A stretch of DNA of 64,000 bases from the NCBI GenBank assembly GCA_951406725.2, contig OX597814.1:54746001-54810000 (forward strand), given 5' to 3'. Under the pieces are notes generated by a model, which was not told where the DNA came from, did no database searches, and was given only the letters and a program-made list of their open reading frames with translations. Within the stretch, counting starts at the first letter, position 1; every line of letters starts with the position of its first letter. The translations under genes were made by a program, and so were the position numbers. Positions 1,767 to 56,495 of this stretch are shown here, piece after piece. Source of the DNA: Octopus vulgaris (Eukaryota).

Positions 1767-3513
1767 GTGGGTGTGTTTGTGCGTGTATGCGAGCACACAC
1801 ACACATACACACACACACATACACACACACACGCACATTCCGGAGCAAGAGGTACGTTTAAAAAATTGTGTCAAAATATGTATTCGTTAGTGTAAAGGTA
1901 CACGAATGAAACTAGATGGTTGTATGCCCTTCCTTGCTTTGTTTATTATTTTTCCTTATCTATTTTATGTTTTGTTGGGTAATTTTACTAGCCGTTGATG
2001 GCGTTTTTTGCATGTTGATTTTGTCAATTGTCAGCTGAAATCGTTTAATTTTCAAATCTGTTCTGATAGTGTTTATATAACGAAACCTGTTTTTGTCGAA
2101 AGCGGGCGATCAAGAGTATATTTAAGAGGAAAGTAGTAAAAGAGAAAGAGGAGGAAGAAACACACTAAATAGGCGAGCAAAGAAGAATGTGAGATGGACT
2201 CGTAAAGGGAAAAGATTAGAAAATTAAGAGGGGGCGGAAATGTTCAAGGAAAAGGGAAGCAATTCACAAGCTAAAGCCTTTTAATCTGACATACCAAAAC
2301 CGCTACATGTTGACGGATATATTACAGCATAGGTCATTGCACTAAATTTAGAAAGAGAAAAGAGGAAAAAAGGAAAAATAGAAAAAGAAAAAGTAAAAGA
2401 GAAAGGAAGTAGAAGAAAGAAGGAAAGACAGAGTGAAAAGTAAACGAGAAAGAAATTCTATCTGAAAACGAATTGCAAATAAAACGGCGAGATAATGATA
2501 TTGTGTGACAGCGAAGAAAGGGAAAATATTTAAAACGACAACCAGTAGAATATAATGGAGAAAAGGTTGAAGTGTTTACCAAAATATGCAATCAAGATAA
2601 ATATACTATTAGGTAATAGATGTTTCTTATCGCGTCTATGCTCAATGATTTGTCCCTGATTTTCTGTGAGTTAGTCACTGTCATGGGCATAAAAATACTG
2701 CAACGATGAGTGGTAAGCATTGCAAAGAGGTATGATAAAAATGCTCACTTATGTTTATTAGAACTGACTCTTAACTTCAATCGTTAAATGATGCCCGTAG
2801 ATAGAATTGCGACTAGTTGATGATTTCTGCGCCAGAGATCTATGACCACCAGGCGTAGTCTTTTTCAATTCTGGAAGTTGTGGATTCACACATTAGAGAT
2901 GGCTCAACTCATCTTAAGTGAATACTGACACATAAAAGTACGAGTAATAATTAACAATTCTAAAGGCATGTATTATATTACTAATGTGTTAAAGCTTATT
3001 TCCTAGTGTTATAGTCAACTAAAGATAGAGAAAAAATTAATACTAAAGCGAGAGATCTACGATTGTTGGTACTTTAGTTTTTAAATGATCAAATTTGTAG
3101 TCCAGTTCAGCAGGCAAGATTAACGTTGTTTAATATTTGCTTGCGAATGTATAAGGATGAAAGTCTCTTTATTTGGAGAGAGGAGTCCACGGCGCCTTTT
3201 ACTGCATTTTTGTCTTAATTAATTGATAATGAATAATATATGACTCATGAGCTTTTTGAACATTCCATATACATTCTGTAAGCTATGTGCTCAGTAGTCC
3301 TTACATTGAAAGCTAAATGACTTATTTCTGTTAAATGTTATATTCTTATGCACATGCAGTACTTTGTTACTAGGACCATAATATGACTCAGGTGGAAATA
3401 ACGAATAGTTTATCCCGTAATACATATACACATACATACATACATACATACATACATACATACATACATACATACATACATGCATACACACATGCATATA
3501 TGTACATATATGC

Positions 3514-3563
<50 letters not shown>

Positions 3564-3699
3564 GTAAATATATGTACATATATGTACATGTATATATATA
3601 AATATATGTATGTATGTATACACACACATACAGAACGAGAGAGAAGGGGTAAGGAAGGGAGTGTCTCAAGGATCGTATACACACTTTAACAGCTGCTAA

Positions 3700-3960
3700 C
3701 CCACATTTCATTTCTTTTTAGATTTAACTTAGAAATAATGAAGGAAGTTAGACTAAGCTCTGAACAAAGGAAATGTTTCCTAATGTTCTACGAGAAGTTT
3801 GAAGACGTAGTCAAAGTGCAAAACAGTTCAGGAGAGAGTTTCAAACAGATCCAATTGGGCGATTTACCAACGATGGAACTAGAGGTAAGTTTGAAGCAGA
3901 TACGATTGCGGACATCGACGATCGTCACAAACTAAGAAACAGTGCAAGAATCGCATTGCC
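3700..3960 (+). mobile_element. Tc1/mariner-superfamily transposase N-terminal HTH remnant (DUF4817-like)
   Basis: MKEVRLSSEQRKCFLMFYEKFEDVVKVQ, then after a frameshift RREFQTDP...GKFEAD. Confidence 0.6.
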
Positions 3961-3967
3961 AGGGTTA

Positions 3968-4221
3968 AAGAAAACCACATCTTCAAAATCCTCTTGAATG
4001 CTTGACATGATAGATTGTTGCAGCAAGTTCAAGTGAATAACATCAGTCATTGTACTGTCAATAAAGAATGGTCCATTTAAACCTTTTGAGGATAAGCCGT
4101 ATCATACTTTAGCTTCTGGAAAATTAACATGATGTTCCTCCGTAACATGCGGATTTTCAGAAACTCAGTATGTGCAACTGTGGTGGTTAATTTAGCCATT
4201 TAATTTAAATTTAGCCGCATC
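3968..4221 (-). mobile_element. Tc1/mariner-superfamily transposase catalytic-domain remnant (inverted)
   Basis: Manual translation DAAKFKLNG*INHHSCTY*VSENPHV...[20 protein letters not shown] matches the DEAxFxLNG..NxxYW..ENPH..VWCG..GPFF pattern. Confidence 0.75.
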
Positions 4222-4623
4222 TTTTACAAATCTTCTCAAGCACCACTTGAAAAACTCCGCCCTTCGTTTCGGAACATTTTCACTGAAAGCTTGAACTACC
4301 CTTGGAATATAACTTTTCTAATTAAATATAAATGCCCAAATAAGTACAGGTATAATGTAAGTGGTAGTAACTGTAAATTTTCCGTTCATTTCCTTTGTCC
4401 TTTGTTTCTACATTCGCATCTCCAACAGTAAATGTTTCTAAATTATATCCAATGAACAGTAAACAAAATTTATGATTAGAAAAGGAATGTAGTATTTGAG
4501 CAGCCCAGATGTGTAAACAAATTCATTATATTATTGATAGTGTCCTAAAATATCAATACCTTTCTAAAAAACAAAAAATAATTTAGATATCGCCATCAAA
4601 TGTCCAGAACCTTTAATGCAAAT

Positions 4624-4705
<82 letters not shown>

Positions 4706-4753
4706 GTATGCGCGCGTGCATGGAGTACTGCATATAGCATGCCTTGTATACAC

Positions 4754-4809
<56 letters not shown>

Positions 4810-5742
4810 ACACACACACACAAACATCGGTTGTCAGATTTAGGTTATCTTGTTATTTCCTGTTCCTGGATTCCAACAGTATAGTATTCAAAGTATAAGC
4901 TAACATACTAATTGTCAGTACAAGATGGAACACATTGACTGTAAATGCTTCTGTCATCTTATATTATGTCACAGTAAACCCGAAACTTTCGTGAGTGTGC
5001 CTATCAAGTTATTAGTCTGAAAATACTTAAATTTTTGAAGAATAATTTTACATCTTTGGTCATACTAATTGCTTCATGTATGTAAGCTTGATCCATGGAT
5101 GCTCTTCGAAGCTTAGTGGTTAGTCGATGTCATCGGTGCAATACTCAAAAGCTATCTTAATTTTATCTCCTCGTCTCCATGCTTTCATTTTAGCAGTATC
5201 ACTATTGAGGTGAACACTTTTGCTGACGATTAATTATTCTCAGGGTGCAATATCTATTGCTTGGATGTCATCTAACGTCAAATTGTGCAGTCTATATGTT
5301 AGTTGGAATACAGGTACATCAAATATGTTTTTGTATGCATAAAACTCTGAGGATCATATATTATAATTCTCTGGGCATGCTTTACCTGTTGCAAGTTTCA
5401 TCATACTGTGCCACATGCAGCACTAATAACTATAGAATTTTTCGTTAGTTACAGAGAGAAATCAGAGAAATAGTGAGGCTATTAACAGATATGTTGCAAG
5501 AGAGATTTGTAGTTTTAGTTCGTTTTATAATCATCTACGGAACATTTATCTTAGTTACATTTCTTCCTTATATCATTATAGAAAATATTGTAAACGGATC
5601 AAAATTTTCGAAATGCCATCCATAATTTTGGCATATACTTTTAGGTTACCCACAAAGAAACTATGCTTCATGTTGGTGTTTCTCTTTTTAGACTTCTGAA
5701 CAAAAACGATAAAGAGTTCACTGCAAATACAAACAATATCGC

Positions 5743-5799
<57 letters not shown>

Positions 5800-6028
5800 A
5801 AGACAAAGGCAGAGAGAGTGAGAGAGAGGGAGAGAGAAGGAGAAAGAGAAAGAGGGCGGGGGAAGGCGAGAGATCCTTTCCATGAAATGGATCATTGCGC
5901 TACGATAAGTTATCTATCAGAGACAATACACTCAGTAGCTGCATTTGACATGAAGATGATGGCTCAGGATGAAACTAGCCATGTCTTTGAAAGTTTAATA
6001 TGCCTAGTATATCTATGAGTGAGGAAAA

Positions 6029-6178
<150 letters not shown>

Positions 6179-6378
6179 AACGACTGAGAACCATTTGAAT
6201 CCGATATCATAATTGTAATAGCTAATGTGAATTTCCTACGTACGTCATTACCAAACTTAATTCTGATATTGAGAAGATTAAAGAACACTAAAGAAGACAA
6301 AACAAAATAAAAAAAAGAAAAGGAAAAACTTGCATATTCTGACATAAAAGTAAAAAATAATAGCCATCATCCAGTAGT

Positions 6379-6960
6379 AAGAAACGCTCTAGTATTATCT
6401 GGTTACACCCATCTTCTTAAATGTTAAATCAAACATTTCTAAAAATTTCCAAGCCTTAGTAAACAAACATTTCCCCATCAACCACAGAGACAGAAAACTA
6501 TCATACAGAAATAACCTTAAATTGGTTACAGCTGTACCACTATTATGACAAATTTTGTTGCAAGAAAACCAATTAAATTTACCGAGATTAACTGCATATG
6601 CAGAAATACAAATGTATGTTCTCTAATTCAGTCATACAACGCTGAAACTTTATCTACGAAGCAAAAGTCACCTCACCCAATTCACAATTAAATATACAGC
6701 AACTCTACGCGGGTATGGTGGAAGATAAATTTAAACAAATTACCTCACCATAGTTTATGGAGAGAAAAGGAATGTAACAAAACTATCGATTTATGTCTGA
6801 AATTTGAAATAACATACTACAACATCCGACACGTGGATGCTGGAGTATATAGAGAAATGATATAAAACGTTGCTAACGAAAGCCTCATAGTCAATAAACT
6901 TAATAAATCCACAGAGTATCTAAATGCTAGATCCAGATCTTACTCACCTGTCGTCACTTA
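6379..6960 (+). mobile_element. Penelope-like element remnant (RT thumb + GIY-YIG endonuclease)
   Basis: Broken frames give IIWLHP..LNVKSNISKNFQALVNKHFPINH..GYSC, CICRN..C, IYEAKV..LYAGMVEDKFKQ and a terminal TCRH, all typical of Penelope. Confidence 0.8.
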
Positions 6961-7989
6961 GAACTCTGGAATATTATATCAACATCCAATTCAAAGGATT
7001 AATATTTAGTTATTTATCTCGAACAATCACGTTCTCTATTTTCCTTTTCTGTTGAATCCAAATGAAATGTTTCAAACACATTCTCTGCCATTCATTTTGT
7101 GAATCTCTATGCTATGTCACAAAGCAATTATTTACATCATCATAATTTCAGCTCCTTAACTTTTCATATTTACTACCACATAATTATTTATTGAAAACCC
7201 CCTTATTATAGTCAACAAACCTAAATGAAATAATTCACCATCAATAAAATTTACAAAGATTTTTATCCCATATATTTTCAATCAAATAATGCAAGACTAG
7301 AAACTGTATGACAAAATAATTGTCATGTCTGATATTCGAGAAACAAGTCTACTTTTTAATCATCTGATGATTATCTACCATCTATGAATATGAAATGCTG
7401 AATCTCAATGTAATATCAATAACGGATTATGTAATTTGATATATTTCATCCACTACGTGAATTGAAATTCATTGCACTTTTAATGTGTCTACTAAGCATT
7501 GTACTATTAACGACCCATCCCAACTTCTATATCATTGATAAAACAACAGCGTGGTGTATTTGATTTCAGCAGTGATAACTTGTTACAGTTTTCATGAACA
7601 TTTCATTATTGTTGTTATTCCTGGGACTGAGACCATCCTTGATCGCGCAGATTTTTTCTCAAAAACCACCCAGACATGTTCATGCTGTTACTCCCTCACC
7701 TTCACCTCATGAGTCTACAACTACATTAACTAAAGTATTCTCCCACATTTTGTCCTCATTTTCTCAGGTGAGAAGCCAGTGTCCCTGAGCCAGTGTTAGG
7801 CCCCCGAGAATGGTGGAGGAGAGAGAAGTATATATACTTGAACCGGAAGCCTGACCTGAATATTTACAACAGAATAAAAGAATGAACTTCGCTAGAGGCA
7901 GCCGTGGTGCCAAGTGATAGAGTTAAGTCGGATTAAGTCTACCATCCAAAGGTTAAGTCTATCACTTGTGGCCTAATGGTGAGGTGATT

Positions 7990-8220
7990 TGAGATAGATG
8001 TACTTGTTATTTCTAGTAGGATGAGCGACCAGATAGTGGCTGACTCATCAATCACGACCATATTGTTGTGGCTCATCGTTGATCTTAGGCCAGTCAAAAT
8101 TAGTAGACCTATGATCAAAGGTATTTCAGTAGTGACTGTTTATCTTGGATACATTATAGAACGACTTCGTTCTTTCTTACGATGTGTGAGAGTAATTTGA
8201 AGAATACTTGACTGTTGTGA
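7990..8220 (-). mobile_element. Dispersed SINE-like repeat with (CAA)n tail (representative copy)
   Basis: Motifs CTAGAAATA(G/A)CAGCCAAAT and GATCAGGGCTGACCTGGGGCTAAACAAC recur at ~30740, 34260-34800, 37490-37910, 39375-39590 and 44430-44610. Confidence 0.6.
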
Positions 8221-9366
8221 AGAGTTCGAGTCCTGCTGTGGTTTGAACCAGAACTGAAGCACTAACTACACGGCTTTACTTTCAATTCTCTTAACATCAC
8301 CACGGTACACAAATAAAATTTCTGCGGATGAAATAACAATAACCGGTGCAAAAATACCAGGAGAAATAATTTATTAGAACTAATATTAGAATTAATATTT
8401 CGTTCATATCTGTGAAAATGTTTATTGTTCTTTGTTCCAAATTTGTATAATGTTTGCATGTATAATATATGTTATTCAGTATAAACTTCGTTTGATTTCT
8501 TTCGATAATATCAGAGTAATGGCGATTTTACTGAAATTTTTAGGGGTGTACATAATTCTGTGAGATATTGTATGTGTGCGCGCGCGCGTATTTAGTCGGT
8601 GACAAAATCGACAACTCCACCAAATTTTCATCGTGAAACAGGCGATCTATTTGGACACTTTGCGGATTGAAAAGCAAAACCTGTAGAAGAACAGATGAAC
8701 TCAAGAAGAGTCAATAGCCAGCCAAAAGTGTATTTACATATGTACACATATGTAAATGCATATAGAAGATTACTCTGACTTTAAACCTTCCGTGTAGTAG
8801 TCTCTGATCATTTTAACCCTTTTTTGCTTCATACCAGCTTAACAGCTTCAAGCATTTACAGACCGTTTGCATAAGCCTTTATCACTATAAAATTTGAGTA
8901 ACATGAGATTTTTACTTCCTTTACTTCCGAAGTTCTAGAACTCGAGCATCTTGGAACCCAAAACAGATAACAGAACATTTGTTGCTACAATTAGGGTATT
9001 ACGTGTATCTGTGTCAATGAAATACAGAAAACTTCCGGAGTTTCCTTGTTTGGGAGGACACGAATTGTATGGTGTAAGCGTGAGCAGTCGCGATGATACT
9101 CTGGTTGCCTAGATGGGTGCATTCGTCGTTGAAATACTATGAGTGTATTGGAGGCGGAGTTTTGATCATCCCATACAGATGTCTGTCGACATCGTCATGG
9201 GAAGACATGACATAAAGGGGCACTACGCTTGTAATTTTAGCACAACAGATGGTCATACAAGATAATGAGTTGACAGCCGCCACATACATACATACGTACA
9301 TACACATACATGTGTGTGTATATATGCTTACATATACATACATATATACAAATACATATGCATACA

Positions 9367-9435
<69 letters not shown>

Positions 9436-9957
9436 GTATGTATATACGTACGGATGTAAGTATGTATGTGTGTGTATGCATGCGTGTGTATTTGTTGATA
9501 TATGCTTGTGACTGTGCGGGTTGCTGTTTATTTGTGTATATTTATGTTTGTGTATATATGCTTGGAAGAAGCACAAACATAAAAAGAGTTAGATAGCGAT
9601 AGATAAAAGATGGATAAATTACATAAAGCACGCATGCGCGCGCAGATACACACACATACAAAGATACAGACCGTCAGGTAGACAGGTAAAGAAGACATAC
9701 ACATATAGAGAGGAGGGGGCAGGTGTAAGAATACAAAGATACATGATGGAGTTTTTAAATTTTGGCTCAATTCCAATTTATATATTATTTTTAAAAAAGG
9801 GAAAAGCGCTCCGTCGAATTCAACGAGGGGTACTTCAGGGTTTTGAATATTATAGAGTAAGCTATTAAACATTCCGCTGAAAACTGTATTCGAAACGTAT
9901 TCATCGTGTATAATTAGCGTGGCACTGTGCATTCTGAATTATAGTTATAGTCAATCT

Positions 9958-10319
9958 GAGCTTACGTTAATCTGAATGACTCGATAATACGCTATTTCGA
10001 GCGCTAATAATGTTTCGTTTCGCGGCTATACTCTGCTACAGAAAATATCTGTTGATTTTAGTCAACACTGCATATGATAATCAGATGGGAACTTCTTGCC
10101 TTTATATACAGTATCTTTATGGACGTATAAAATGTATATATATATATATACATATCTGCAAATATGTAAATGCGTAAGCATATACTTATGTATATATATA
10201 TAAGTAAAAGAGGGAGAGAAAGAAACATAGCTGTGTGCGTATATATACATACAGGTATATATACACTCGCACATAGACAAGCATGTATTTAAATACATTC
10301 TTATTGACACACACACAGC

Positions 10320-10406
<87 letters not shown>

Positions 10407-10949
10407 AATTTTATTTAATTCTTTCGCAGGAAGGATTAGTTCGACGAGACGTGTTCTGTCCTCACCTTCGAAACACGCTGGAGTTGAACTAGGGACGGCT
10501 GATGAAGGGGATTTTTCCTTGTACTCTGTTTTTTCGTTGTTAAAAAAATGGTCCGTTCCATGCTGTTTTTACTTTTTCGTTTCTCGTTCAGTTCTACGTC
10601 TATTTGTGGTGTCCTGTACACACGTATATATATTTATATATGCATGTATATATACATGTAAATGTAGGTACGTACATATATGTTTGTACGTATGCATATA
10701 TTTTATTTATTACACTATATATATATATGCATACATACACTCATAAGAAAGTCAATATATCTTTACTGTTTAACTATTAAATTTCGTATGTCCATGAAGA
10801 TACTGCATATAAAGATGTTCCCATCTGACTATCACATGCAGTGTTGGCTAAAATCAACTTATATATTCTGTAGCAAAGTATAGCCATGAAATGAAACATT
10901 GTTAGCGCTTGAAGTAGCGTATTATCAAGATTTCGATTAATGTAAGCTC
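9958..10949. repeat. ~170-bp inverted repeat pair (9958-10127 / 10787-10949)
   Basis: Arms are reverse complements at roughly 80% identity by eye; both translate to FPSDYHMQC in the ORF track. Confidence 0.85.
10403..10620 (+). mobile_element. pLTR-like repeat with degenerate hammerhead (same family as 20340-20790 and 60720-61090)
   Basis: UAGUU-CGACGA...UUC-GAAA-CACGCUGGA-GUU-GAACUA, followed by CTGATGAAGGG; homologous to the other two copies. Confidence 0.6.
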
Positions 10950-10962
10950 TTAGTACTAATTA

Positions 10963-11171
10963 TTTCAAATTTTGGCACAAAGCCAACAAATTTGGGGAAA
11001 GGGGGAAGTCGATTACATCGACTCTAGTGCACAACTGGTACTTATTTTATGGACCCCCGAAAGGATAAGAAAAAAAGTCGACCTCGGCAAAATTTGAACT
11101 CATCGTAGAGCCTGAAGAAATTATGCTAAACATTTTATCCGGCGTTTAATGGTTGTGCCATCTCGCCGCCT
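10963..11171 (-). mobile_element. tRNA-derived SINE, family B
   Basis: Head GGCGGCGAG.TGGCA, B box GAGTTCAAAT, core GGGGTC..ATAAAATAAGTACCAG, tail TTGTGCCAAAATTTGAAA; degenerate ~16-bp TSD TAAGC..TTAGTA.TA. Confidence 0.85.
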
Positions 11172-11419
11172 TAAGCATTTAGTAATAGCAATTATAAGTT
11201 GTGTGTGAACAGTTAAACAGGATCCTCGGTCACTTCCATTAGAAGACTGCAACTGGCTCGGGTGATCAACGGAAAAATTGCATGTAAAGACAAAGTGTGC
11301 ACATCTGTCTATTTCATTCCATCAACGGATGCCTCGAAAGCATCTTCTAGTGGGTGTGCCAATCTTTTAGAAGTAAAAATTTCAAACGCAAGAAATAAAA
11401 AGAAAAAAACATTGCCTCC

Positions 11420-12020
11420 ATGAGCGATATTCAGCTAGACCCCTCACGGTCAATCCAAATGTTTTACCTCATTATCATGAAGAGTCTCTCCTGGCGAAAA
11501 TACAGTTCTAATATAGCAAGGCGTGCATCTCAAAGACTGACCCTTCTCTCCAGACCAAAATATACTTCATCCCTTCTTTCAACAATTATCGACAATAAAA
11601 CTCAAGTGTGACCCACACTGGGTTACACACATATTGCTTCCACACCAGGAACGGTGCTGCTGCTACACACACACACCGACATCTTGGATCGTATCCAGAA
11701 TCAGACCGTTTAACTGATTCGCATATAAAATTACTTACAGACACGCTCTAGTTTCTGGCTCATAAGTATGTTGCTACATTAACGGCCGATGGTTTTTTGG
11801 AATTTGATGGTTATGTCCCTCGTCCACTTATCCACACACCTTTCTTCCTCTGTCCACCTTTGTTGCGTCAAACTCTCTAGGTACCATAGTAATCACTAAG
11901 TCAAACCCTTCGTCTTTAGAATAACGCCTCTCTGGAATCATCACACCGCTCATAGTTTTCCCGTAGTTGTTGAATTGTAACTGTTTAAACGGAACGTTAA
12001 CGACAGCAAACACACTAGTT
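11420..12020 (+). mobile_element. CR1/L2/Jockey-like LINE 3' RT remnant
   Basis: SLSWRKYSSNIARRASQRLTLL...KTQV(R)PTL...ILDRIQ resembles the C-terminal RT region of these clades. Confidence 0.6.
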
Positions 12021-12489
12021 AAAGAAGGCATGAAAAGGTCATGGGCCCAGACCCTTCTTCCTTACCTAGCACATAATGAAAAGAAAGGAAAAAAAAAAGC
12101 ATACAGTCATGTCTAACATTCCCCAATAGATTCTATAGTCCCGTGTAGCATATAAATGAAACGAGATTCTTTAGTCCAGTATGGCATCCAAATGATGTAC
12201 TGCTAACGCACCAGTAATTTATAGCTTGTATGAGTGTGTGTGTGAGTGTGTGTGCGTGCGCGCATGTGGTGGGAATGTGTGCGTATGTGTCGATTCGGAA
12301 GGCTTAATATATATAATATGCATTTCATTTGTATACGTGATGTCCCTGCTTTACTCCGCCGGACGTCATACTGTTTACGTGCTCTCGTATTGCACAAACA
12401 TGTCATTAATTGTAAATTATACTTCAGTGTCAAAGCCTCCTCCGTAACTGTTCGTCTTGTGACATACACAGAGGCACCCAAACTATATA

Positions 12490-12526
<37 letters not shown>

Positions 12527-12712
12527 GCACAAGCACACACATGCACAATGTGCGTGTGTGTGTGTGTGTGTAGACAACATAAATTCATACACACGCACAC
12601 ATACACGTATGTACTCATATGTATAAGCACATGTATGAATGTATATATAAGTATATACGCACACATGTATGTATGTAGTATGTATATATACGCATGTATA
12701 AATACATAAGTG

Positions 12713-12875
12713 CGGGCGTGGCTGTGTGGTAAGACGTTTGCTTCTCAACCACATGGTTCCGGGTTCAGTTCCACTGCGCGACACCCTGGGCAAGTGTTTG
12801 CTACTATAGCCTCAGGCTGGACCAGAGCCTTGTGAATGGATTTAGCAGACGGAAACTGGATGAAGCCCTTTGTGT
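12713..12875 (+). mobile_element. tRNA-derived SINE family A, 5' half
   Basis: GTGGCTGTGTGGTAAG...GGTTCCGGGTTCAGTTCCACTGCG; matches the 18091 copy. Confidence 0.9.
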
Positions 12876-12914
12876 GTGTATATGTATGTATATATATATA
12901 TGTGTGTGTATATG

Positions 12915-12951
<37 letters not shown>

Positions 12952-12953
<2 letters not shown>

Positions 12954-13090
12954 CTAAAAATAAGGGTGTCTGAGAGACACCACCATGCCGAAATATCAGT
13001 CAAAACCCTGACTTTACAAACCACGTTTTTAAAGTGTTTTGACTGCTATTTCGGCATGGTGGTGTCTCTCAAACACCCTTATTTTTAGTT
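12952..13090. repeat. Palindrome with ~55-bp arms, hammerhead-like
   Basis: AACTAAAAATAAGGGTGTCTGAGAGACACCACCATGCCGAAATATCAGTCAAAAC and its near-perfect reverse complement. Confidence 0.9.
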
Positions 13091-13182
13091 GTAAAAAAAT
13101 TATTACCTTTGTACGGTATTTTTTCCCATGCTGGCCACTTGATAATATCGATATTTAAACATCGATATTATTCTTATTTATA

Positions 13183-13302
<120 letters not shown>

Positions 13303-13728
13303 GGACAGATAGATATAAAAACCTATGTATATACGTGCGTGTGAGAACAAAGCAAGCAGAGTGGGTGGAATATAGAATGAAAATTTGTGTATTTTCCTGT
13401 TGCATTCAACCTATAAATATTACTAAGAATACAGCCATGTGTATCAGATATAATTCTTCAGTTTGCCTGACCACGTGTGTGCGTAAATATTCTTTGGCGA
13501 ACGACATAAGTCCCAGATGTAGCAGCCAGATTGACTTTAGAGATACCAACGATATTAATTAACCTCTCAACAGTACACCATATATGGATTAAATGAATGA
13601 GTGTATTCCTAGATCCCTATTCCTCTTTTCCACCTCTCTCTACATATGCATGTATGCATGTATGTATGCATCCATGTATGTATGCATCCATTTATGTATG
13701 CATCCATGTATGTATGCATTCATGTATG

Positions 13729-13766
<38 letters not shown>

Positions 13767-13970
13767 ATCAAAAAGACACACACATAACAATTATCAATCC
13801 CTTCTCTCTCATTTCTCTATCCCTCCGCATCAATCTATTTATCTACCAAAGAATTAATCAATCAATCATTCCAATCATTCAATCACTCACTCAATCAGTC
13901 TGTCTGTATCTCTATCTAACTATATGCACACATGCATACGCGCATATACATAATACATGCATATAAATAT

Positions 13971-14031
<61 letters not shown>

Positions 14032-22349: not shown

Positions 22350-22745
22350 AAACAACTATCGTCGGTGTTTTCGTTTGACATCGTTCGTGCGTTTGTACTG
22401 GTTTTAGTTTTAAGGTGTTAGGGTTAAGTTTTAGGGTTAGGGTTAGGGTTAAGGTTTTAGAGTTAGTGTTAGGTTTGTCATAGATAACAGTGACAAACGA
22501 AAAATATATCGCTGGAAGTTCTTGTTGACAAACAACGGCAGTAATTTTATTCAGCTCAATACACGTCATTGATTGGTTGAAATTACCGAAATAGGGCTAC
22601 TTTAACGTGAAATAACTTCGTAAATACAAGTGTTTCTCAAAAATTCTAACACTAAAAGATGTTTTATATGACACATTCTACCAGTGCCGAAGTTTGAAAG
22701 TGTTTAGTTACAAAAAATTATTTATGTAAAAATACACTTTTTAAC
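22350..22745. mobile_element. Probable non-autonomous DNA element containing degenerate (TTAGGG)n
   Basis: TTAGGGTTAGGGTTAGGGTTAAGG at ~22431-22454 within AT-rich MITE-like sequence. Confidence 0.4.
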
Positions 22746-23227: not shown

Positions 23228-24463
23228 TTAGATCATCAAATATGAAATTTGTAGAAAAGAAAAAAAATTGTTAATGTTTTATGAATAGTTTTATTCATCA
23301 AAGTATGCACCCATATTGTCAATACACTTTTGCCATTTCAGTGTAAAATCCTGGCAATCCAGGGTCAATAAAATCTTGGAAGGCCTGTTTTACAGCATCG
23401 TCGGAACTACATTTTTTTCCTGTCAAAAAGTTATCCAAATTCTGGAAGAAGTGGTAGTCAGTGGGGGCAAGATCAGGTGAGTATGGTGAATGATGGAGAA
23501 CTTCCAACTCCAACTCCTGTAGTTTCGTCAATGTCATTTTTGCAATGTGTGGTCTGGCGTTGTCTTGCAATAAATTAGACTAATCTAAGCTGTTTTTTCT
23601 AAGTGTCTGCATCATTTGGTCCAGGTGGCTGCAGTATACTTTGGCTGTGATTGATGAGCGAGGTTTAATGAAATCATAATGGATAACACCTACGCCAGAC
23701 CACCAAACACACACCACCAGCTTCTTTTGATGAATTTTGATTTTTGGACTGTGTTTTGGTGGCTCGTCCTTGTTCAACCATTGTGCTGAACGTTTACGGT
23801 TGTTGTATTGGATCCATTTCTCATCGCATGTTACAATTCGATTAAAAAATGATTCATTTTTGTAACGAGAAAGTAGCATAATGTAGGCTTCCAAACGTTG
23901 CTGTTTCTGATTTTCATTGAGTTCATGTTGAACCCGCTTATCCAACTTTTTCACTTTACCTATTTGAACTAGGTAAGTCAATATTGTTTGCTTGCTAACA
24001 CCAAACAACAACGATAATTCACGGGTACTTTGAGATGGATGTGACTCGACGGTGTCTTTCAGTTCGTCATTATCCACTTTTGTTTCTGGTCGACCGCGTT
24101 GCTCATTTCTGAAGTCAAAGTTACCAGAACGAAATTTTGCGAACCAATTTGATACTATCTTCTCTGTAATAACATTAGAATGAAATACTCCATTAATATT
24201 CCGAGCTGTCTGTGTTGCTATATTTCCAAGAAAGAACTCATTTCAAAACTGTACAAATTTCCAACTTATCCACCTCTAAACAAAAATAGCAAAAAGCGAT
24301 TTATAATTACTTTATAAAGCCCAAAATGAGTTAGAATAAAGAAATAGATGTATCAGCTTTCTAACAAAAAATAAATATTGTCAAAATATAATAATGGCGC
24401 AAAATGAGCAGCTGTCAAAGTTTGTCATATACCTTACCACAAATTTCATACTTGACGACCTAA
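23228..24463 (-). mobile_element. Mariner (DD34D) transposon, full length but decayed
   Basis: IVTCDEKW, QDNARPH and HSPYSPDLAPTDYHFF motifs; TIRs TTAG(A/G)TC(A/G)TCAA(A/G)TATGAAATTTGT; TA at the right end; frameshifts and stops. Confidence 0.95.
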
Positions 24464-25986: not shown

Positions 25987-26189
25987 TTTCAAATTTCAAC
26001 GTATTGAAAATTGATTGTAAATTTTATTCACGACACTAACATTTAACCTTTTATCATTAATATTCACGTCATTGACTCTCTTGAAATGATTGTCTTAGAT
26101 TTCTTTCTTTTTTAATTATGTAAATTAATCCTTGACTGAAACTAGACCTAATTCTTTTTTCTGTTTGTAAAAACCTAATATCTAACCTG

Positions 26190-29100
26190 CAGACTTAACA
26201 ACTTAACAGAACCATCCGTCCAGTGCAACACGACACTGGATATTATCGGCTTGCCACTCCAGGTGCCGAGCCGCAAACCGATGGACTTGTCTGTTTTAAC
26301 TTTTTCCCCTGACACCACCTCGTATCCTTTGATTGCATCCTCTACACAAAGTAGCTGAGCTACATTGGACACGGTGATGGTGACGTCATCCGCATATGCA
26401 GAAACAGACTCACCACATCCGATTTCATTGGGGATGCCCCCTAAACTCTCCAACCTCCGCAGCAATGGCTCAAGAGTCAGTACATACAGAAGCGGAGACA
26501 GGGGGCATCCTTGACGAGCCGAGCGCTTGATCTCAAACGGCTCCGACAGGTAAGCGTTTATTTAGACTGTGGATTTGATGCCGCCATAAATGGCCTTGAT
26601 CCAACCGCGAAAGTCCGAGCCTAGCCCAATCGCCTCAAGGATTGCCGCCAGGTACTGGTGGTCTAACTTTGGTCTAAATGGATCAATGCCCCACTTTTAC
26701 CGGATACTTTACCCACCCTGTCTAAGGTGTAGCGTAAGAGATGAAGACTGTCCTTGAAGTTTCTCCACGACACGCATCAACCTTTTTGCTAACACCTTAG
26801 CGAAAATCTTTAACTCTACGTTAAGTAGAGTTAAGGGCCTAGAATTACTAATATGATCCTACTTGTGCGGTTTTTTTCTGATCAGCGTCACCACTCTCCG
26901 ACTCATAGATCTGGGAATCCTCCCATTCTATTGTCAGTTTGTGTAGACGCAGGCCAGCAAGTGTACGAACAAGTCCGGCATACTACGATAAAATTCATAG
27001 AGCAGACCATCCAACCCCGGCGACCTGTCTCCTGCGCATTCAGCCAGCACCTCCTCGATCTCCACAGCTGTAATCGGCCCTTCACAACATTCCGCCTCCC
27101 GCGCCGAGAGCCGCGGCCCGCCGGCGAGTAAGTCCTTTAGGGACTCCACTCGAGAATAGTGTGAAAGTCTCCTACTAAAACTAGAGTTTTAAACGTCACC
27201 AGAAAGCTCTCCAGGTCTCGAAAAAACCCCAGCTTGTCTATACTCTTTAGGAGCGTAGACCGCTATCAGCCTGAAGGACTGCTTACTTGTGTGTCACATC
27301 TAGGACGACCAGCCTACCTTCTGGGTCAATAAAGAATGTACTTACCTGTACGTCCAAGCTTTTTCTGAACAATACCACCACGCCCCCGCCTCTACGTCGA
27401 CTTGGAAAAATAAATTTCTGATAGCCATTTAGAAGAGGCGGGAACGCATGTGGCCCATTCAACTTGGACTCAGTCGCAACACATATATCAATTTCAAGTG
27501 ACCTGAGGTCGTCCAGGAGACAAGTTTGCTTCCATCTCGACCCCAGGCCACGAACATTATGTTACACCGTAACTTAATTTCCATAGTAAAAACTAATTGA
27601 ACTTACATTTTAAGTTTGGGGAGGAGCTGCACGAATTCGATAACCTCCCCCTCCTTTTCTTTCTGAGATGTAGTCGCTGGTGTAGCCGCAGGGCTAAACA
27701 CAAGTCTTTTGTTGGCCATCTCTTGACTAACATCTCGTATGTCCTGCAGGTATCTTGCTTTAAATTGTTCAAATTGTTCCACTTCTATCCTTGCCGACCA
27801 TATATTCGGTGGCATGCCTTGTATTGGTCAAAACACATATGCTTTGTGATTCGAAGTTATTATTTTCGCTAGAACATCATTTTTCTCGTTGAACTTAACA
27901 ATTCTTTCTCCTAGTGCTTTTTTAGGGAGGAGATTGGTGGCGGGTTTACTGTGTGTTTGCGTTTTGTGTAGATGATTTCTTTGTCAGGATAGGGGAGTCT
28001 GGGGCTTAGGCTTTTTTCCTTTTATATGAAGTCACTGTGGTAAATTCCATTTCCTCTACGGTATCCTTCTGTTGTGTGTTTTCTACATTTGTGTTGTTTC
28101 TTTCTTCTTCTTTTCCTGTGACGCTTTTTGTGGCGTTTTCTGTGTCGCTTTCCGTCCCTTTTTAAATTATTTTCTTTTTTGGAAGGGACTTCTGCCTTTT
28201 TCAGTTGTTATTTAATTTTCTCGCACTCCGAACGGACGCGCCCTTTTTCTCCACATTTAAAACATCTGGGTCTACGTCTGAAACTCTAGCGCTCAGTCCC
28301 TCCCCTATAAAAATGCCGTCTGGCCTCGATTCAAGTATGTTATTTGGGGCTTGAACTAACATCTCGAGAGTTTGGCCTTTCCAATTTAGAGCCTCTCGCT
28401 TTTTCATTTGGAGTATTGTTATTTCTTCTGCGTCGTAAATTACGGCCGCTGTCATCCATGTTACATCGTAACCAGCTGGTATCTCGTCTATTGTTATTTT
28501 TGCAGTTCTCTAGCCTAGGTAGGTCGGAAGCAACATTATTTCATTACTTTTTAAAGTTTGCATCGATTTTTCTTTTGCTGTTTCAGTATTCTCGAATTGC
28601 GCCTCAACAGAGGCGCTTCTTAGTCCTCGGCCGACATAGGTAATTTTTCTCCATATGGGGGCGAGGCACTTCTCTACCACCTCTTTCTTCATTTCTTTTT
28701 TTTTCTTGTATATTTTGTATACTACCGTTCTGGCAGTTAAGTGTTGTACTATATCCTGTGGTGGCAGAAGTTTTGTTTCATTGCCACTTTTCTTTATAAG
28801 GTTTCGAAACTTAGATAATTGTTCCTTAGACACCTCCAATTCACAGAAATTACTACTGACAGCAGCAGAGAAACTTGGCTTTTCTTTTCTTTCCTGATTA
28901 CCAACTTGGTTACTTTCTTTCATTGCCGGGAAATCTTCCATTGAGAACAGAAAGTCGACATTCGACCACAGATATAATTCCATTTTTACAAATGGCCCCC
29001 GAATTTCAAAAAAGAAGCGTATTTTTCTCAAAAATGACAAAAATTATTTTTTCACCATGCAACGTCACAAAATAGTTTAACAAGTTGTATAAAAAAGAAA

Positions 29101-33153: not shown

Positions 33154-33588
33154 ACGTAAAGTATACTAGCCATCTCAATATGGCTAACCACTAAGGGTGG
33201 GTGGTAGTGTAGCTTTTAGCCCCAGGAGATCATCGTCTCCAGCTGGCTTTAGGTACACTTTCTGTGCTCTTATGGTATTTGCAAAGGGAGGTCATCCCTC
33301 TCTCGTAAACCTAAGTGATACGCACGGACTGCAGTTTCTAGGTATTTGCCTGTCTTCGGCGTACGGCAATCACCGGTTTTCGATGAAGGGAGACCTGTTT
33401 GCAAATATTTATTTATTGTTTTTCCAGTAACTTCCGTCACTGATTTCGAAAAGCTGTCTGCAAGCAATAATAAATCTCTGAATGAGATGTAAACAGTAAC
33501 TGCTCGACAACGTAAAGTATACTAAGGGCACAGAAAGTATCGAGCAGTTACTGTTTACATCTCGTTCAGAGATTTATTATTGCTTGTA
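33154..33588 (+). mobile_element. Highly structured non-coding element with 15-nt terminal direct repeat and a 3' inverted copy
   Basis: ACGTAAAGTATACTA at 33154 and 33510; inverted repeat 33459-33506 / 33540-33588; several internal hairpins. Confidence 0.6.
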
Positions 33589-34879: not shown

Positions 34880-36150
34880 TTTTTTTCGTATTTTAAGTTT
34901 TAATATTTCAAATAGATTAGATACGAATAGCGTTTATTCATCACAATATCCCATCATATATTATTGTCCGTAGCCATCGTTTTGCTAGAAGCTCAATTCC
35001 ACGCTTATACTATTTGGCTGGTTTTGAGGCAAAGAACTTTCTGCACCCGTTTTCAATCTCATCCACATTGTCGAACTCCTGTCCATGCAGGAAATGAACA
35101 ATGGCCCGGAAAAGTGGTAATCTCATGGTTAGTAGGCAGTGTGAGCAGCACTTCCAGCTCCTCAAGTTTGCATTTGGTTACATTGGCAGTGTGTACTGGG
35201 GCATTGTCATGCTGTGGGAGTGCGCATCTTCGATCGACCAATGCTGGGTAGCGGGTTTTCAAAGCATCATATACTTGCTGCAGTTGTTGTGCATAAAGGT
35301 TACCGTTCACAGCATGACCATCTGGGACATCCTCAAAGTGCAATATCTTTCCGAAATTCCACCAAACACACAACATGACCTTCTGTCCAAACCACCCTTG
35401 TTTGACAACAGATTCTGAAGCCTGGCCAGAACGAAACCACTGTTTTCTCTTCTTAGGATTACGATAATAGAGCCATTTTTCATCTCTAAAAACGTTCATT
35501 TTGAGGATTACAAAAACAGAACCATTTTTCATCTCCAAAAACGAGCATTTTGAGGATTTGCCAGTATTTGTTTGCAAATGTTCACACTTCGTTGAGCCTG
35601 GTCATTGGTCAGTTCATGAAGAGCATCTCGACAACGTCTGTTCACAAGGACCAGTTTATGGAGGTGTCGATTGATGGTGCTTTGTGAAAGACCAAGTTCT
35701 GCTGATAATGTACGCGCGCGCTTCTGCTTGGCTGTTGTTCAGCTGTTTCACGCAAGCCTCCTATTCCACATCAGGTCTCTTTGATCTTGGTTTGTTTTCG
35801 AGGTTAGTGTCATCGTCTCTGAAACGTTTGAACTAGTTTTGTGCTACATGTTCGTTGACAGTTCCTGGTTCTTCCACCTCATTAATTTCTTTTGCTACTG
35901 TCTCTGCCACTGCACGCAGTCTTTTTTTGCACAGGCTGCGTAAAATGGCTCTAATTGCAATTTTCCGCCACTCATTATCAAAGCTGTAATATAAAGAACA
36001 AACAATTAATGCATATATGTTATATAGGAAAATAACGAATAAACAATTCAGCAAAGTTTGGACAAGTTGTTTTTAATTAATGATATAACATAGAAATACA
36101 AGTTGTCAAAAATCTTCAAAGAAAATCTGAAAAAGCTTTTGACACAATCC
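34880..36150 (-). mobile_element. Mariner transposon, decayed
   Basis: DEKWLYYRNPKKRKQW, KVMLCVWWN and HDNAPVH motifs; N-terminal HTH in ORF 35833-36054. Confidence 0.9.
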
Positions 36151-39818: not shown

Positions 39819-39845
39819 AACAATAATAATGATAATGCTTTCAAA

Positions 39846-40100
39846 TTTATTTAAAGGACACAATACATGTACTTAAGCACTACTAATAGCTTCATATGTT
39901 GAGAAATACTGAAACGTATTCTTCAGGTGCAAACTACATATTGTAGTGAACTAAAATAATTGAATAAGTTTCTTCTATTATTCATTTTTCTTTAGTTCGT
40001 TATGATATGTGGTTTCCGCCTAAAGAATATGTTTGAGTATTTCTCAACATATGAAACTATTAGTGGTGTTTAAATACATGTATTGTTCCCTTTAAATAAA
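39846..40100. ncRNA. 255-bp palindrome with a hammerhead in each arm (39877-39930 minus; 40016-40069 plus)
   Basis: Arm consensus GCAC-CUGAAGA-AUAUGUUUGAG uauuu CUCAACAUAU-GAAA-CUA u UAG-UA-GUGC. Confidence 0.85.
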
Positions 40101-40173
40101 TAATATATATATGTTGGTACAACAGGAAAAATAGTACTCAAAACAGTGTATGTATATTCTTATTAATATTTAG

Positions 40174-40312
40174 CAAAAGTACCAGAGTGACTCCAGGTCC
40201 ACGAGTTTCGTGCGTTGGCACTCATCAAAATAGTTACAGGTTCAACCTGTAACTAGTTTGATAAGTGCTAAGGCACGAAACTCTCGGACCATGAGTCACT
40301 CTGTTACTTTTG
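40174..40312. ncRNA. 139-bp palindrome with a hammerhead in each arm
   Basis: UUGAU(G/A)A-GUGC nnnn GCAC-GAAA-CUC[9 nt]GAG-UC-ACU on both strands. Confidence 0.85.
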
Positions 40313-40418
40313 TTGATTTTTAACACGCTACGTTTTTAAAGTAACCTTCCCTGGACGAAACATCTCACCCTTAAAGTGTTTAACAACACACATACATTAA
40401 GTATGTGACGTTGATAAC

Positions 40419-47300: not shown

Positions 47301-47476
47301 TAAGAAAATGGAGGAAAAGCAACAAATAGAAGTCTATCTTTGGTGCTAAAAAGCCATTATTTAATTACTTAAGCAAGGTGAAGGTAAGATTGAGTTTACC
47401 TTGCTTAACAAATTAAATAATGGCTTTTTAGCACCAAAGATACCCTTCTATTTGTTGTTTTTCCTCTATTTTCTTA
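47301..47476. repeat. Palindrome with ~80-bp arms
   Basis: TATCTTTGGTGCTAAAAAGCCATTATTTAATT and its reverse complement around a ~12-nt loop. Confidence 0.9.
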
Positions 47477-48899: not shown

Positions 48900-48990
48900 T
48901 GTAGTTGATGTTGAAATCCCAATGAAAGAGCCTTGGATCTAGGTTAGAAACTGGCTCTTTCTCTATTGGCAAAATCTTAAAATAAAACCG

Positions 48991-49024: not shown

Positions 49025-49470
49025 CATACATACATACATACATACATACATACATACATACATACATACATACATACATACATACATACATACATACATT
49101 GGGGTACTGGGAAATGTAACACACTGCCTAAATACCAATCTTGAGAAATAAGGCTTCTCAAAACCAGAAAGGAGAAAGCTGATTCGAAGATTACAGATCT
49201 AAGTCATCATTGGAACTGTAAAAATCTCTAAAACTTTCCAGAAGTTTATCATTTAAGTATATATGAGCAGGTCTAGGCATGCAACTGTATGCATGAGAAT
49301 ACATACATAAGACAAAACATACAAATCTGCACATATACATACTTACATACATTCATGCAAAAATACCCTGCTGATGTTGTTGAAATTCCAATGAAGGAGT
49401 TTGGGATTTAGGTTAGAAACCGGCTCTTTCTTCATTGGCAAGAAATTTTGAAATAAAACCAAATAATGAC
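48900..49470 (+). repeat. Two ~90-bp direct copies of a retroelement 3' end (48900-48992, 49372-49470)
   Basis: GTTGAAAT(C/T)CCAATGAA..TAGGTTAGAAAC(T/C)GGCTCTTTC..ATTGGCAA..AAATAAAACC; stem-loop followed by AATAAA. Confidence 0.7.
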
Positions 49471-49797
49471 ATGCATACATGAGTATGTGTGTTTATGTAT
49501 ATAAACGCACAGAAAACATACAGTACCACCAAGCAAAGACTGATGTTTTGTGATAGAAAAGTTCACTCTAATGGTGAGCTGTTATGGGCTAAAACATACT
49601 CAAGTATCAGACAGGTATTTCTGAATGAAATTCATCTAGGTACAGTTTCAGAATATACGATCGAATTATTTTATGCTTGGTTCGGGATGATGTTTTTCCA
49701 CTCCCATTCCACACATATGCAAACACATGTCAAACACAAACACGTACGTATGTATGTATGTATGTATGTATGTATGTATGTATGTATGTATGTATGT

Positions 49798-50262
49798 ATT
49801 TGTGGCTATGGAGTTGTTTTGAACCTTATTTCTAGCAATGCCGGTACCACTCAGTACCCTCTGTCACTTTAGTGGCGTCTATAAATTTGCCTTTAGGTTG
49901 CTAAATTGTTAATAAACCCCTATATTATTTATAGTTTTCAGTTTTATCGTTGTTTAAATAATCGTACGAGTTCAACGGTTTTTTTTATAAGCTGACAAGG
50001 TGAGTTGAGTTTAACCCTTGGTCCTGTAAGAGTCACCGATGAGAATTAAGATGCTCTGCATCAAAATTCGAAATCACCATTGATCTGGCTATGTCCACTG
50101 GGACTTATCTCCTTTGTCAGCCGTTAAGATAGTGCATTTGTGGCGACTGTGTTTTGACTCTTATTTCTAGTAAAGCCTGTACCACTTAGTACCTTCTGTC
50201 ACTTTAGTGATGTCTACAAATTTGCCTTTAGGTTGTTAAATTGCTAATAAGCCTAACATATT
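49798..50262 (+). mobile_element. Retrozyme/pLTR-like element: ~125-bp direct repeats, 338-nt period, internal hammerhead
   Basis: Repeats start with ATTTGTGGC at 49798 and 50136; HHR at 50031-50090. Confidence 0.8.
50031..50090 (+). ncRNA. Type I hammerhead ribozyme (U4C variant)
   Basis: AGUCA-CCGAUGA-GAAUU aa GAUGC ucu GCAUC aa AAUUC-GAAA-UCA ccau UGA-UC-UGGCU. Confidence 0.85.
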
Positions 50263-50318
50263 ATATATATATATATGTAGGTAGGTAGGTAGGTAGCCAG
50301 ACACACATATATGTATAT

Positions 50319-51439: not shown

Positions 51440-51485
51440 AACACAACGTTTCGGCTGATATACCCTCCAGCCTTCATCAGGTGTC
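51440..51485 (-). ncRNA. Minimal type I hammerhead ribozyme
   Basis: GACAC-CUGAUGA-a-GGCUG gaggguauau CAGCC-GAAA-CG-UU-GUGUU. Confidence 0.88.
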
Positions 51486-53196: not shown

Positions 53197-56100
53197 ACAG
53201 AGTTGAATAACGTCAACACACATACTGGCAACAGCGTTCCTAGCAAGCAAGTGGGAAATGAAAGCAAAAAGAATGAACAAATATCTACTGCCACCACCGC
53301 TGCTACCACCACTGTCTCCACTACTGCCATACCCACCACGACCACCAATACCAACACGAACAGACAAAGTAACTTTGCTTCAGTTTTGAGGCAAAGAAAA
53401 CGGGTTGTTTCATTTCCACCACCAACATCAACAACTATAGAAGCAGCAAACGGAGAAGAGAAAAACAAAAGGACTCAAAACTCCTACACCACATCGCAAC
53501 TGTCACTAACCAGCACCAACACCAACAACAGAATCAACTTTAACACACTCAGAGACACCCTCCAACTTTAACTTTCTGATTCTTCCGACATGTCGTCAGA
53601 TGAAGGCGACATGGAGGAATGGCAAGTGGCCATAGGGGGGAGGGAGGAGAAAAGGGGAAAAAGAATAGAGAAGCAAACAAGCAAAGCAGGGAGATTTGTC
53701 ACTTCCGAAACCAAAACACCCGCACGAAACAAAAACCTAAACACAAACACAGAAACACACAATGAATTCACAATGTTGACAGCAATAAACACAAACAATT
53801 CAGACTTGATGCCATACATTAGATCAAACACTAACATAACACAAGACAATGTCGAAACAAACAATCACCTACGCACAACACCACCACAACACATAAAAAT
53901 CCTACACGTGACACAAAACACACACAATACACTGAAATCTCTCTATCCTAATGCAGTAGGGAGATTTCAAAAATACTTATCAAAAAAAAAAAAAAACGAT
54001 TGTACAAAAACCTCCTGATAGAAACTAGTGAGGAGGAGAACAACAAACTTTCGAAGAATAAGTGACTCTCTCTCTCTCTCTCTTTCATTCTTTTCCTTTT
54101 CCTTTTCCTTTCGTGTGTAAAACACAACTTTCGATAGGAACATGCTTAGAATAGGCTGTATAAATGTGTGTGGCTTGGGGTCGCCTTGGAAACAAGGCTC
54201 CCAGCTAAATGACATCAAGTCACAGAATGTAGATATCATAACCATCAGTGAGACCAGACTCCACAACCCGTGGGCCTTAAAGCACATGTTCGGCGGACAA
54301 TTCGACATTTATTTTTCTCCGTGTTTGCTGAGAATGGGCGGAAGTGGTACCACGGTGCTTTTTCGGAAGAGTCTGGATCTCAAAGTAAGAGCAACATTCC
54401 TAGCCCCGGAGGGTAGGCTGGTCGTCTGGATGTCGATGGCAGAAATGGGTGTGCTTTTCGACTGATAACAGTTTATGTGCCGTCCTTAACAGGTCGGCCG
54501 GATTTCTTTCGACGTCTGGAAGTTTTCTGGGAATGTCTCGACCTTTACTTTTAGGGAGGAATTGGAAATCCGCCTTGGACACCAACTTGTCTACGTGGGT
54601 AGAGACAGGAATAGGAGGAGATGTAAATGCCTCAGACATTTCCAACTGTCTGACAGGTACCAACTCAACCACCCGAATGTGCCAATGTGGACACGGAGCA
54701 ACCGCATCAGGTCGTCCAGATCGTATTTAAATAGAGTACTCTGTTGGACAGTGGGTAGTGATAATGTAGGTTGTCCATAATTTCATATAGTCAGCTACAC
54801 AGATCACAAATTTGTGACTTATACGTTTGACGTAGATAAGAATCATAGGTAGGGTCCCAATTACTGGAAACTGAACGCGTCGTTCACGGTACGACAGGCT
54901 TACAGAGACTGCATCGGCACATTAGTTAAGAGGGCATACCACCAGTTATTGGTGGTATGCCCTAAAGAGAGCAATTAAAGCAGAATCGGTTAATTATAGT
55001 AAGGCTCTAGCGATAGATCGAAATAGAATAGATGGAAACCTAGTTAAGAAATTAGAAGAGGCACATAGAAGTGTCCATTTAACATCACGCGTTCGGTCCG
55101 TCAAGGCTGCTCCTCCTCGTTGCTTCTGTACGTATTGACTGCAGAAGCTAGCGATGCTGAGGGGCATCCCGCAAGAACTGGGATGCGGTAGGAGCGTGTC
55201 TGCGTATGCGGACGACGTCACCGTCATAGTATCGAACCACAGGCACATCAAGCTGGTCGGCGAGACACTAACAGAAAACGAAGCGGTAACGTGAGCGAAA
55301 ATTTACCCGGAAAAGTCAGTGGGCTGGCGGCTCGGCACCTGGAGAAACAAGCCCATGCAGTCCAACAGCGTCGCCATCGTGGGACACTGGACCGACGCAC
55401 TGGTTAAATTGTTCGGGGTCTGGTTTGGTCCGGACCTACAAATAGAGAAGAACTGGGGCGAGATAACGAGTAGAGTGGCCAGTCTCACCAAGCAATGGGC
55501 CGAGAGGAAGCTATCTATAAAAGGTCAGGCTGAGGTGGCGAATGCACACATCGCATCCGTCATTTACTACCGTCTGACCGTCGTGCCTTGTCACGACCCA
55601 ACCATCATAAAACTGGAGCGCATACTCTTCCGCTTTTTGTGGAAGGGAAGCGTTCCAGTGGTCAGGCAATCCATTTGCTGCCAACATCCGCTAAATAAAG
55701 GGCTGGGCACGACGTGGTTAATGATGCACAGACATGCGCTGAGACTGCGACATCTCCAGCGTTCCAGGCGACGGCGAACATGTGAGGTCGCCGTTTGTGA
55801 GACGCGCTTTCCCGCAGTTCCTCTTTTTGACCGAACTGCATTCGTGGATAAAACACAAACCGAGGCCAGGCAAATGGCACTGCGAGTGCCACCTTGCTCT
55901 CGAGCAACTCTGCCGTACGGGATCGTATGACTTCAAATCTACGGAGGCGTTCTATAGATGAGGTGCGACGACGTTTTTGGGGAGACCCTGGGCGTCGACG
56001 AGGAATATCAGGCCCGTCTCTTCAGGACCACTTTCAGGCCGTGACCTATGGACAATTTCCAGAGATCCTTGGCCTGGCAGTGCTATCGGGAAGCATTGCC

Positions 56101-56495
56101 TGTTTGGGATAAGCTCTACTGGCACGGTTCGAGAAACATCGGACCAATTTGCCCAAGATGCGATCAGAGCGACGAAACTGTTCTGCACGCACACGTGCAA
56201 TGTCCAAACATTTCAGACCTGTGGGCTTATGTCGAACGGCTGCTGTCACGTGTGGGACGACTTTGGTTATCGGCCGAATTTATCAGGAATATTGCCCCGC
56301 CACGTTCCTTTAGCCGGGAAGGCAAGGCAGTTTTCATTGGCTATGGTGAAAGAATGTGTGTGGTAGACTCGTGCAAAAGGTTTTGAGACAAACACTTTCC
56401 TCTCTGGCCAACCGCTCATCAACTTTTTCAAGTGCCACTTGAAAAGGAAGGTGAGAATAGAGAGGGAAGCTTTGTCTCATGAAAGTTTCAAAATG
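52830..56495 (+). mobile_element. Tx1/L1-clade LINE, decayed and internally deleted
   Basis: T/N-rich ORF1 remnants; APE MLRIGCINVCGL..DIITISETR; YADD at ~55205; zinc finger CPRC..ETVLH..C. Confidence 0.92.

Follow-up and report, generated by a model that had tools for sequence, protein, structure and literature searches.

The element described here lies at positions 49798-50262 of the window, by which we mean the whole stretch of 64,000 nucleotides of Octopus vulgaris DNA that was analysed. By sequence comparison it is an insert of 465 nt holding 1.38 copies of a 338-nt unit, in agreement with a preliminary description of this DNA that had counted about 1.4 copies. The following features were delineated:

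49744-49797, no strand: (GTAT)14 microsatellite flanking the insertion site on the left
49798-49924, + strand: repeat A, the upstream part, truncated at its 5' end (0.38 unit) and matching repeat B in sequence
49925-50135, + strand: single-copy middle of the 338-nt unit
49991-50121, + strand: long predicted stem (arms at about 49991-50010 and 50103-50121), an extended helix I round the hammerhead
49997-50005, + strand: putative 5' splice site AAG|GTGAGT, a perfect consensus match, putative intron start at 50000
50031-50090, + strand: type I hammerhead motif, predicted cut after C50085
50104-50120, + strand: putative 3' splice site (pyrimidine tract and CAG), which doubles as 3' arm of the enclosing stem
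50136-50262, + strand: repeat B, the 3' end of the unit, stopping 177 nt past the predicted cut
50263-50296, no strand: (TA)n followed by (GTAG)n, microsatellite flanking the insertion site on the right

Repeats A and B, described earlier as two direct repeats of about 125 bp, are indeed 84-87% identical (87% by alignment column, 83.9% over 124 nt by blastn), and their offset, 338 nt when measured at the 5' end, drops to 335 nt beyond a 3-nt indel. The unit has a GC content of 0.36 and is non-coding, without a long frame. No target-site duplication is visible at the insert and no second copy of the element was found within the 64-kb window. We conclude that the insert is an old insertion in a microsatellite. 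The DNA of the window is AT-rich and dense in microsatellites, with RTE, Tx1 and mariner remnants, and two copies of an element of about 85 nt (48906-48989 and 49375-49460, 84% identical, an apparent internal inverted repeat) lie amid such microsatellites.

The insert contains only one hammerhead. Its stem I is formed by positions 50031-50035 with 50086-50090 (5 bp), stem II occupies 50043-50069 (5+5 bp) with GAAA at 50070-50073, helix III at 50073-50084 makes 4 bp round a 4-nt loop in this copy, and the cleavage triplet AUC has its last base at 50085. The core at 50036-50042 reads CCGAUGA with C at position 4 (50037), in the position numbering used for the hammerhead core (U4C, 10.1, 17), so that U4C is the single core change, just where the preliminary description had put it. 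Its wording of a 'fully closed' hammerhead has to be corrected, as this is one of type I, in which closure is confined to stems II and III and stem I stays open. With position 4 left free, a descriptor whose stem thresholds were chosen when the motif was already known gave 2 matches in the real window and none in 200 shuffled windows (block-wise dinucleotide shuffles of the whole window), a result that argues against the motif being a chance or long-dead look-alike within an ordinary repeat. Such a look-alike would be in keeping with an active fold that differs from the MFE structure, with the U4C change and with the outcome of the Rfam search, which returned no hammerhead at gathering score nor among the 36 matches up to E=10, the E-value matches having been rejected as microsatellite artefacts. 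In the predicted ensemble the pairs of stem III have probabilities of 0.03-0.04 alone and 0.00 in context, and the 86-nt hammerhead region folds no better than its shuffles (z -0.67).

The family to which the element belongs was surveyed by aligning contigs from 4 of 24 listed public runs to the stretch. Three of these, DNA runs with three species labels, yielded 904, 1019 and 1030 aligned contigs, among which 801, 881 and 886 respectively were less than 95% alike; some records of runs X1 and X3 have coordinates in common and probably represent one and the same locus each, which makes the runs non-independent, and summed depth was not taken as copy number. Run X5, which is RNA only by guess, gave 51 contigs, a figure with no bearing on expression, and none of the listed runs with the element is on record as RNA. 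The junction from A to the middle is bridged by 8 of 32 pieces listed (3358 more exist), with 23-40 mismatches, five of these eight being different records of run X3 over one stretch; the junction from the middle to B is bridged by another 8 of these 32 listed pieces, seven diverged and the remaining one, with a single mismatch, probably representing the insert's own locus. A 374-nt contig (record 6 of X1) reads B, 73 letters, middle, B and represents a second locus, where the unit measures about 347 nt. The longest tandem in the contigs reaches about 1.05 unit, these contigs being too short for arrays with two ribozymes.

Because the unit junctions recur in diverged copies, the duplication is not specific to this locus and these copies are not simple colinear tails of a long element. 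Judged from these contigs, the small cyclic or permuted unit is a family trait. An alternative in which a monomer was inserted and 125 bp were then duplicated locally, at this one site, for which the lack of a second copy in the 64-kb window could be cited, appears largely refuted by the eight diverged pieces across the A-to-middle junction and by the second locus that exceeds one unit, and we think it most improbable. As a separate observation, the block at 49814-49845 has a summed depth of about 55,000-65,000, compared to 3,000-14,000 elsewhere in repeat A, in the three DNA runs, and may be common to a larger subfamily or to another repeat family.

The relatives also clarify the ribozyme. 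With the majority letters at 50079 and 50080, which make up 70-88% of depth in the DNA runs, helix III becomes a perfect 12-nt palindrome, AUCACCGGUGAU, and the consensus of the loose ends at 50077 (16 contigs) gives a 10-nt palindrome, AUCACGUGAU, followed by A17. The helix III self-duplex is calculated at -19.5 kcal/mol for AUCACCGGUGAU and -12.9 kcal/mol for AUCACGUGAU compared to -2.4 kcal/mol for this copy, and in predicted folding none of the three forms a hairpin alone. Palindromic helix III and the G10.1-C11.1 pair are present in the family majority and in a second subfamily and are broken in this copy, and the majority letter at 50033 converts a G-U pair of stem I into G-C. By analogy with PLE (Penelope-like element) hammerheads, which are reported to have a palindromic helix III and to act as dimers (PMC4209133), the tetraloop-closed stem III of this copy is best read as a decayed palindrome of the dimer-acting type. 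The closing tetraloop noted earlier would thus be a product of decay, and in place of the monomer-competent ribozyme that it implied the relatives point to a dimer-type design; of the retrozyme-like unit first proposed, the partial tandem is supported by the recurring junctions and the closed, monomer-competent ribozyme is not supported.

Of 270 variant sites 40 are listed, each of these 40 reaching at least 53% in some run, and neither position 50037 (C4) nor any other position of the hammerhead core is found among these listed majority differences. If the list is ranked by share, as we infer, C4 appears to account for at least about half of the depth and not to be private decay of this copy. 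With a palindromic helix III and a C4 that is apparently family-wide, slow cleavage that depends on dimers is the prediction for this ribozyme. A natural U4C hammerhead variant of a viroid is much slower in vitro and sufficient in vivo (cited in Perreault et al. 2011, PMC3088659); it has the core substitution in common with the 338-nt family, but is a single variant, whereas here C4 would occur in about half or more of a genomic family. The C4 core is absent from the searched supplementary file of PMC4209133. That relatives improve stem I, keep helix III palindromic in two ways and spare the core at the 40 listed sites also counts against a mere look-alike, which we regard as very improbable.

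The two repeats of the insert differ at 13 sites within an ungapped 104 nt, and at 11 of these 13 the contigs on one repeat read the letter of the other, five sites being private to A and six to B (at 3 of the 11 the share of the other repeat's letter is below half in at least one DNA run). This pattern fits two sequences that were once identical and decayed separately, by about 0.068 substitutions per site each, or about 7%. Using the repeat calibration published for O. vulgaris, in which a JC distance of 0.065 corresponds to 18 Myr (PMC13282606), the insertion would date back roughly 18 Myr. The single family letter at 11 of 13 sites counts against a duplication built in with fixed A and B types, and hence bears on the explanation that the insert is the 5'-truncated tail of a long autonomous Penelope-like element carrying the A-middle-B duplication in its 3' end. 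The O. vulgaris genome is reported to contain 190 families of PLEs, which together account for 6.83% of it (PMC13282606). A long parent element would agree with the two other PLE-type hammerhead fragments in the window and with the depth, which is highest in the 3' repeat as with truncated tails, and its longer upstream context could be hidden by the shortness of the contigs. Next to the missing A- and B-type letters, the multi-contig loose ends upstream of A, among those listed, resemble the end of the middle segment in three DNA runs, which also speaks against it, with the proviso that they may be B copies aligned onto A. We consider such a long parent improbable.

The reading that we favour, and to which we give about an even chance, is that the insert is a decayed 1.38-unit copy of a many-copy 338-nt family, likely non-autonomous and of Penelope type, that was copied by a borrowed reverse transcriptase (RT) from an RNA longer than one unit. 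A head-to-tail source locus would be transcribed, and the RT/GIY-YIG protein of an autonomous Penelope-like element would nick a (TA)n-type microsatellite. Priming would use the AT-rich 3' end, which lies some 177 nt beyond the ribozyme site, after which the RT would copy one whole unit, cross the uncut ribozyme site and halt 127 nt into the next unit, leaving A-middle-B. A and B would be alike at the start and subsequently decay independently, each by some 7%. The combination of a microsatellite target, 5' truncation and no target-site duplication matches EN+ PLEs, for which microsatellite target bias, 5' truncation, partial tandems and non-autonomous head-to-tail forms are described (PMC8557442), and retrozymes are held to be derivatives of PLEs (10.64898/2026.07.22.740005). 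In an Anolis PLE, reverse transcription has a fixed internal start, which lies downstream of the ribozyme, and the RT mainly uses unprocessed RNA in vitro (PMC11167929). Here the first 16 or so letters of the loose ends behind 50253 are common to three runs (23, 24 and 21 contigs, agreement about 0.6), and in run X10 these ends become microsatellite-like, a weak hint at a fixed 3' start of reverse transcription. Permuted start points, which the preliminary description had suggested looking for, are weakly disfavoured by these shared first letters.

No ORF of an autonomous partner was found in the window, none of the 118 ORFs matching the GIY-YIG family in a profile scan from which low-complexity and short ORFs were left out. 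RT matches in the window are confined to LINE-type fragments away from the element, and the endonuclease and transposase matches are of LINE and mariner type. These mariner transposase and broken LINE fragments, with RT and endonuclease Pfam matches, lie at 23583-24242, 35062-35601, 26178-27561 and 54121-56383. Long inverted repeats, 81-91% complementary and MITE-like, were seen at 47301-47476, 39845-40101, 40163-40323 and 33461-33586.

A cut linear monomer primed at 50262 would yield only 177 nt, so the 465-nt insert calls for a template that was intact across the cut. The earlier proposal of reverse transcription past the junction of a circular or multimeric template is supported to that extent, i.e. 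by a copy of more than one unit that runs uncut across the ribozyme site, and we infer that the template was either an uncleaved multimer or a ligated circle, the A-middle-B sequence fitting both alike. The circular alternative, which we consider possible but doubtful, has the same element and partner, with an RT that would have rolled 1.38 times round a ligated circular RNA of about 338 nt; that circle would come from double-hammerhead cleavage of a multimer and host ligation, as in the canonical cycle of non-LTR retrozymes. Circular RNAs have been proven for coral, mussel and axolotl retrozymes, and the unit size and 36% GC fit those of metazoan retrozymes (PMC7229834); moreover, the unit is cyclically closed in many copies, and the family letters favour an intact stem I and helix III. 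A circle also explains how copies of more than one unit keep arising in spite of repeated 5' truncation, which a linear template alone leaves unexplained. On the other hand, the circular fold is hardly more stable than expected (z -1.14 and -1.84, with 15 and 2 of 100 shuffles as stable), this copy being decayed, U4C lowers activity in vitro (PMC3088659), eight of nine Xenopus dimers were without cleavage (10.64898/2026.07.22.740005) and the one PLE tested gave no read ends at the ribozyme site (PMC11167929). Given the slow, dimer-dependent action predicted for the ribozyme, we lean to the uncleaved multimer as slightly more likely than the circle, at roughly even odds in itself.

The hammerhead is enclosed by the long predicted stem at 49991-50121, which is more stable than all of 300 shuffles (z -4.11). 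In its outer arms, four out of four listed family variants keep the pair, all by one-sided changes, and the three inner pairs touched by listed variants are lost with the family letters; in this copy, those three pairs compete with the ribozyme fold. The putative 5' splice site has a counterpart in 39 of 5000 shuffles of the unit and is one of 5 such matches in the window, both strands counted. Together with the 3' signal it would define a 121-nt intron with the ribozyme inside and with ends that pair together, which we treat as a lead only; the 3' signal may simply be the complement of the 5' signal. No spliced joint occurs among the 15 joints shown of 146, and a 3' splice site at 49941 was rejected, another letter being found there in 72-87% of depth. 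Introns in the 5' UTR of PLEs, at the pLTR, are known (PMC8557442, PMC4209133). An attenuated (C4), dimer-dependent hammerhead lying wholly inside a retained 121-nt spliceosomal intron, whose splice sites pair and close helix I, is in our opinion unlikely. If it were true, splicing and self-cleavage would be mutually exclusive fates, and cleavage would yield a permuted intron with the 3' site at its head and the 5' site at its tail, which could explain why introns are retained in Penelope-type elements; by back-splicing, this permuted intron could also give a circle of about 217 nt devoid of the ribozyme.

Compared to known systems, the element resembles metazoan non-LTR retrozymes in its non-coding, low-GC unit of about 340 nt with one type I hammerhead each (PMC7229834; 10.64898/2026.07.22.740005) and in its head-to-tail junctions in many copies. 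It combines a type I hammerhead motif (with U4C), a short, low-GC, non-coding unit within the range of about 170-400 nt that defines this class, and a multi-copy head-to-tail family. It differs in its C4 core, its long interrupted helix II and the intron-like segment round the ribozyme. With one ribozyme at this locus it falls outside the 'active' class as defined in the preprint of Li, Clavereau and Pollet (2026, 10.64898/2026.07.22.740005), where dispersed monomer-level retrozyme copies are also described. With the pLTR hammerheads of EN+ PLEs (PMC4209133, PMC8557442, PMC11167929) it shares the palindromic helix III, short helix I, long helix II and G10.1-C11.1, and with these elements themselves the 5'-truncated partial tandem in a microsatellite target without target-site duplication, as would be expected of a non-autonomous PLE, a 3' end shortly downstream of the ribozyme and splice-site-like signals near it. 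It lacks an ORF, and thereby the RT and GIY-YIG domains of an autonomous EN+ PLE, as well as the extra base between positions 9 and 10.1, which is reported as typical of metazoan PLE hammerheads and not universal. Its helix III of 10-12 nt is longer than in the minimal PLE motifs, and whereas in the Penelope of D. virilis the intron ends at helix I, the putative intron here would contain the whole ribozyme.

Taken on sequence characters, this is likely a retrozyme-like, Penelope-type family, either a non-LTR retrozyme or a non-autonomous PLE, of a kind already known in animals, so that the connection already known between retrozymes and Penelope-like elements gains one more animal family. Should the family-wide C4 and the nesting in an intron hold, it would offer a compact test case for the role of the ribozyme in the PLE cycle and for intron retention in PLEs. 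A literature search on octopus with Penelope or hammerhead ribozyme revealed no such family, with the reservation that supplements may list cephalopod or C4 motifs. The main text of the O. vulgaris repeat annotation (PMC13282606) has no mention of hammerhead or ribozyme, and exact short motifs of the element gave no match in the published supplementary data searched, which is a weak test. For the giant squid, 235 type 1 hammerheads are reported (PMC6962438). All 43 loci from a metagenome pattern scan were rejected as chance matches without homology beyond the pattern.

Two further hammerheads were noticed in the window, both of PLE type and from families unrelated to the 338-nt element, so that such motifs are common here. 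One is a canonical metazoan PLE minimal hammerhead at 51530-51370 on the - strand (core at 51480), with a U4 core, an extra base after position 9 and a palindromic helix III; the 5' end of this fragment adjoins an RTE-like LINE remnant at its (TAA)n tail, and no ORF was seen upstream of the fragment. The other, of type I, lies at 22244-22010 on the - strand (core at 22234); its core is canonical, its stem II very long and its helix III palindromic. It begins at stem I in a SINE-like repeat, reaches (AT)n some 200 nt on, and has a weak second copy at 1320-1518 (+ strand, E 2e-4). Homology of the 338-nt element to the latter and to the neighbouring segment 49098-49300 was rejected, as 251 and 169 of 500 shuffles, respectively, scored as well. 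Degenerate TTAGGG-like repeats are present at 22400-22473, near the 22234 hammerhead.
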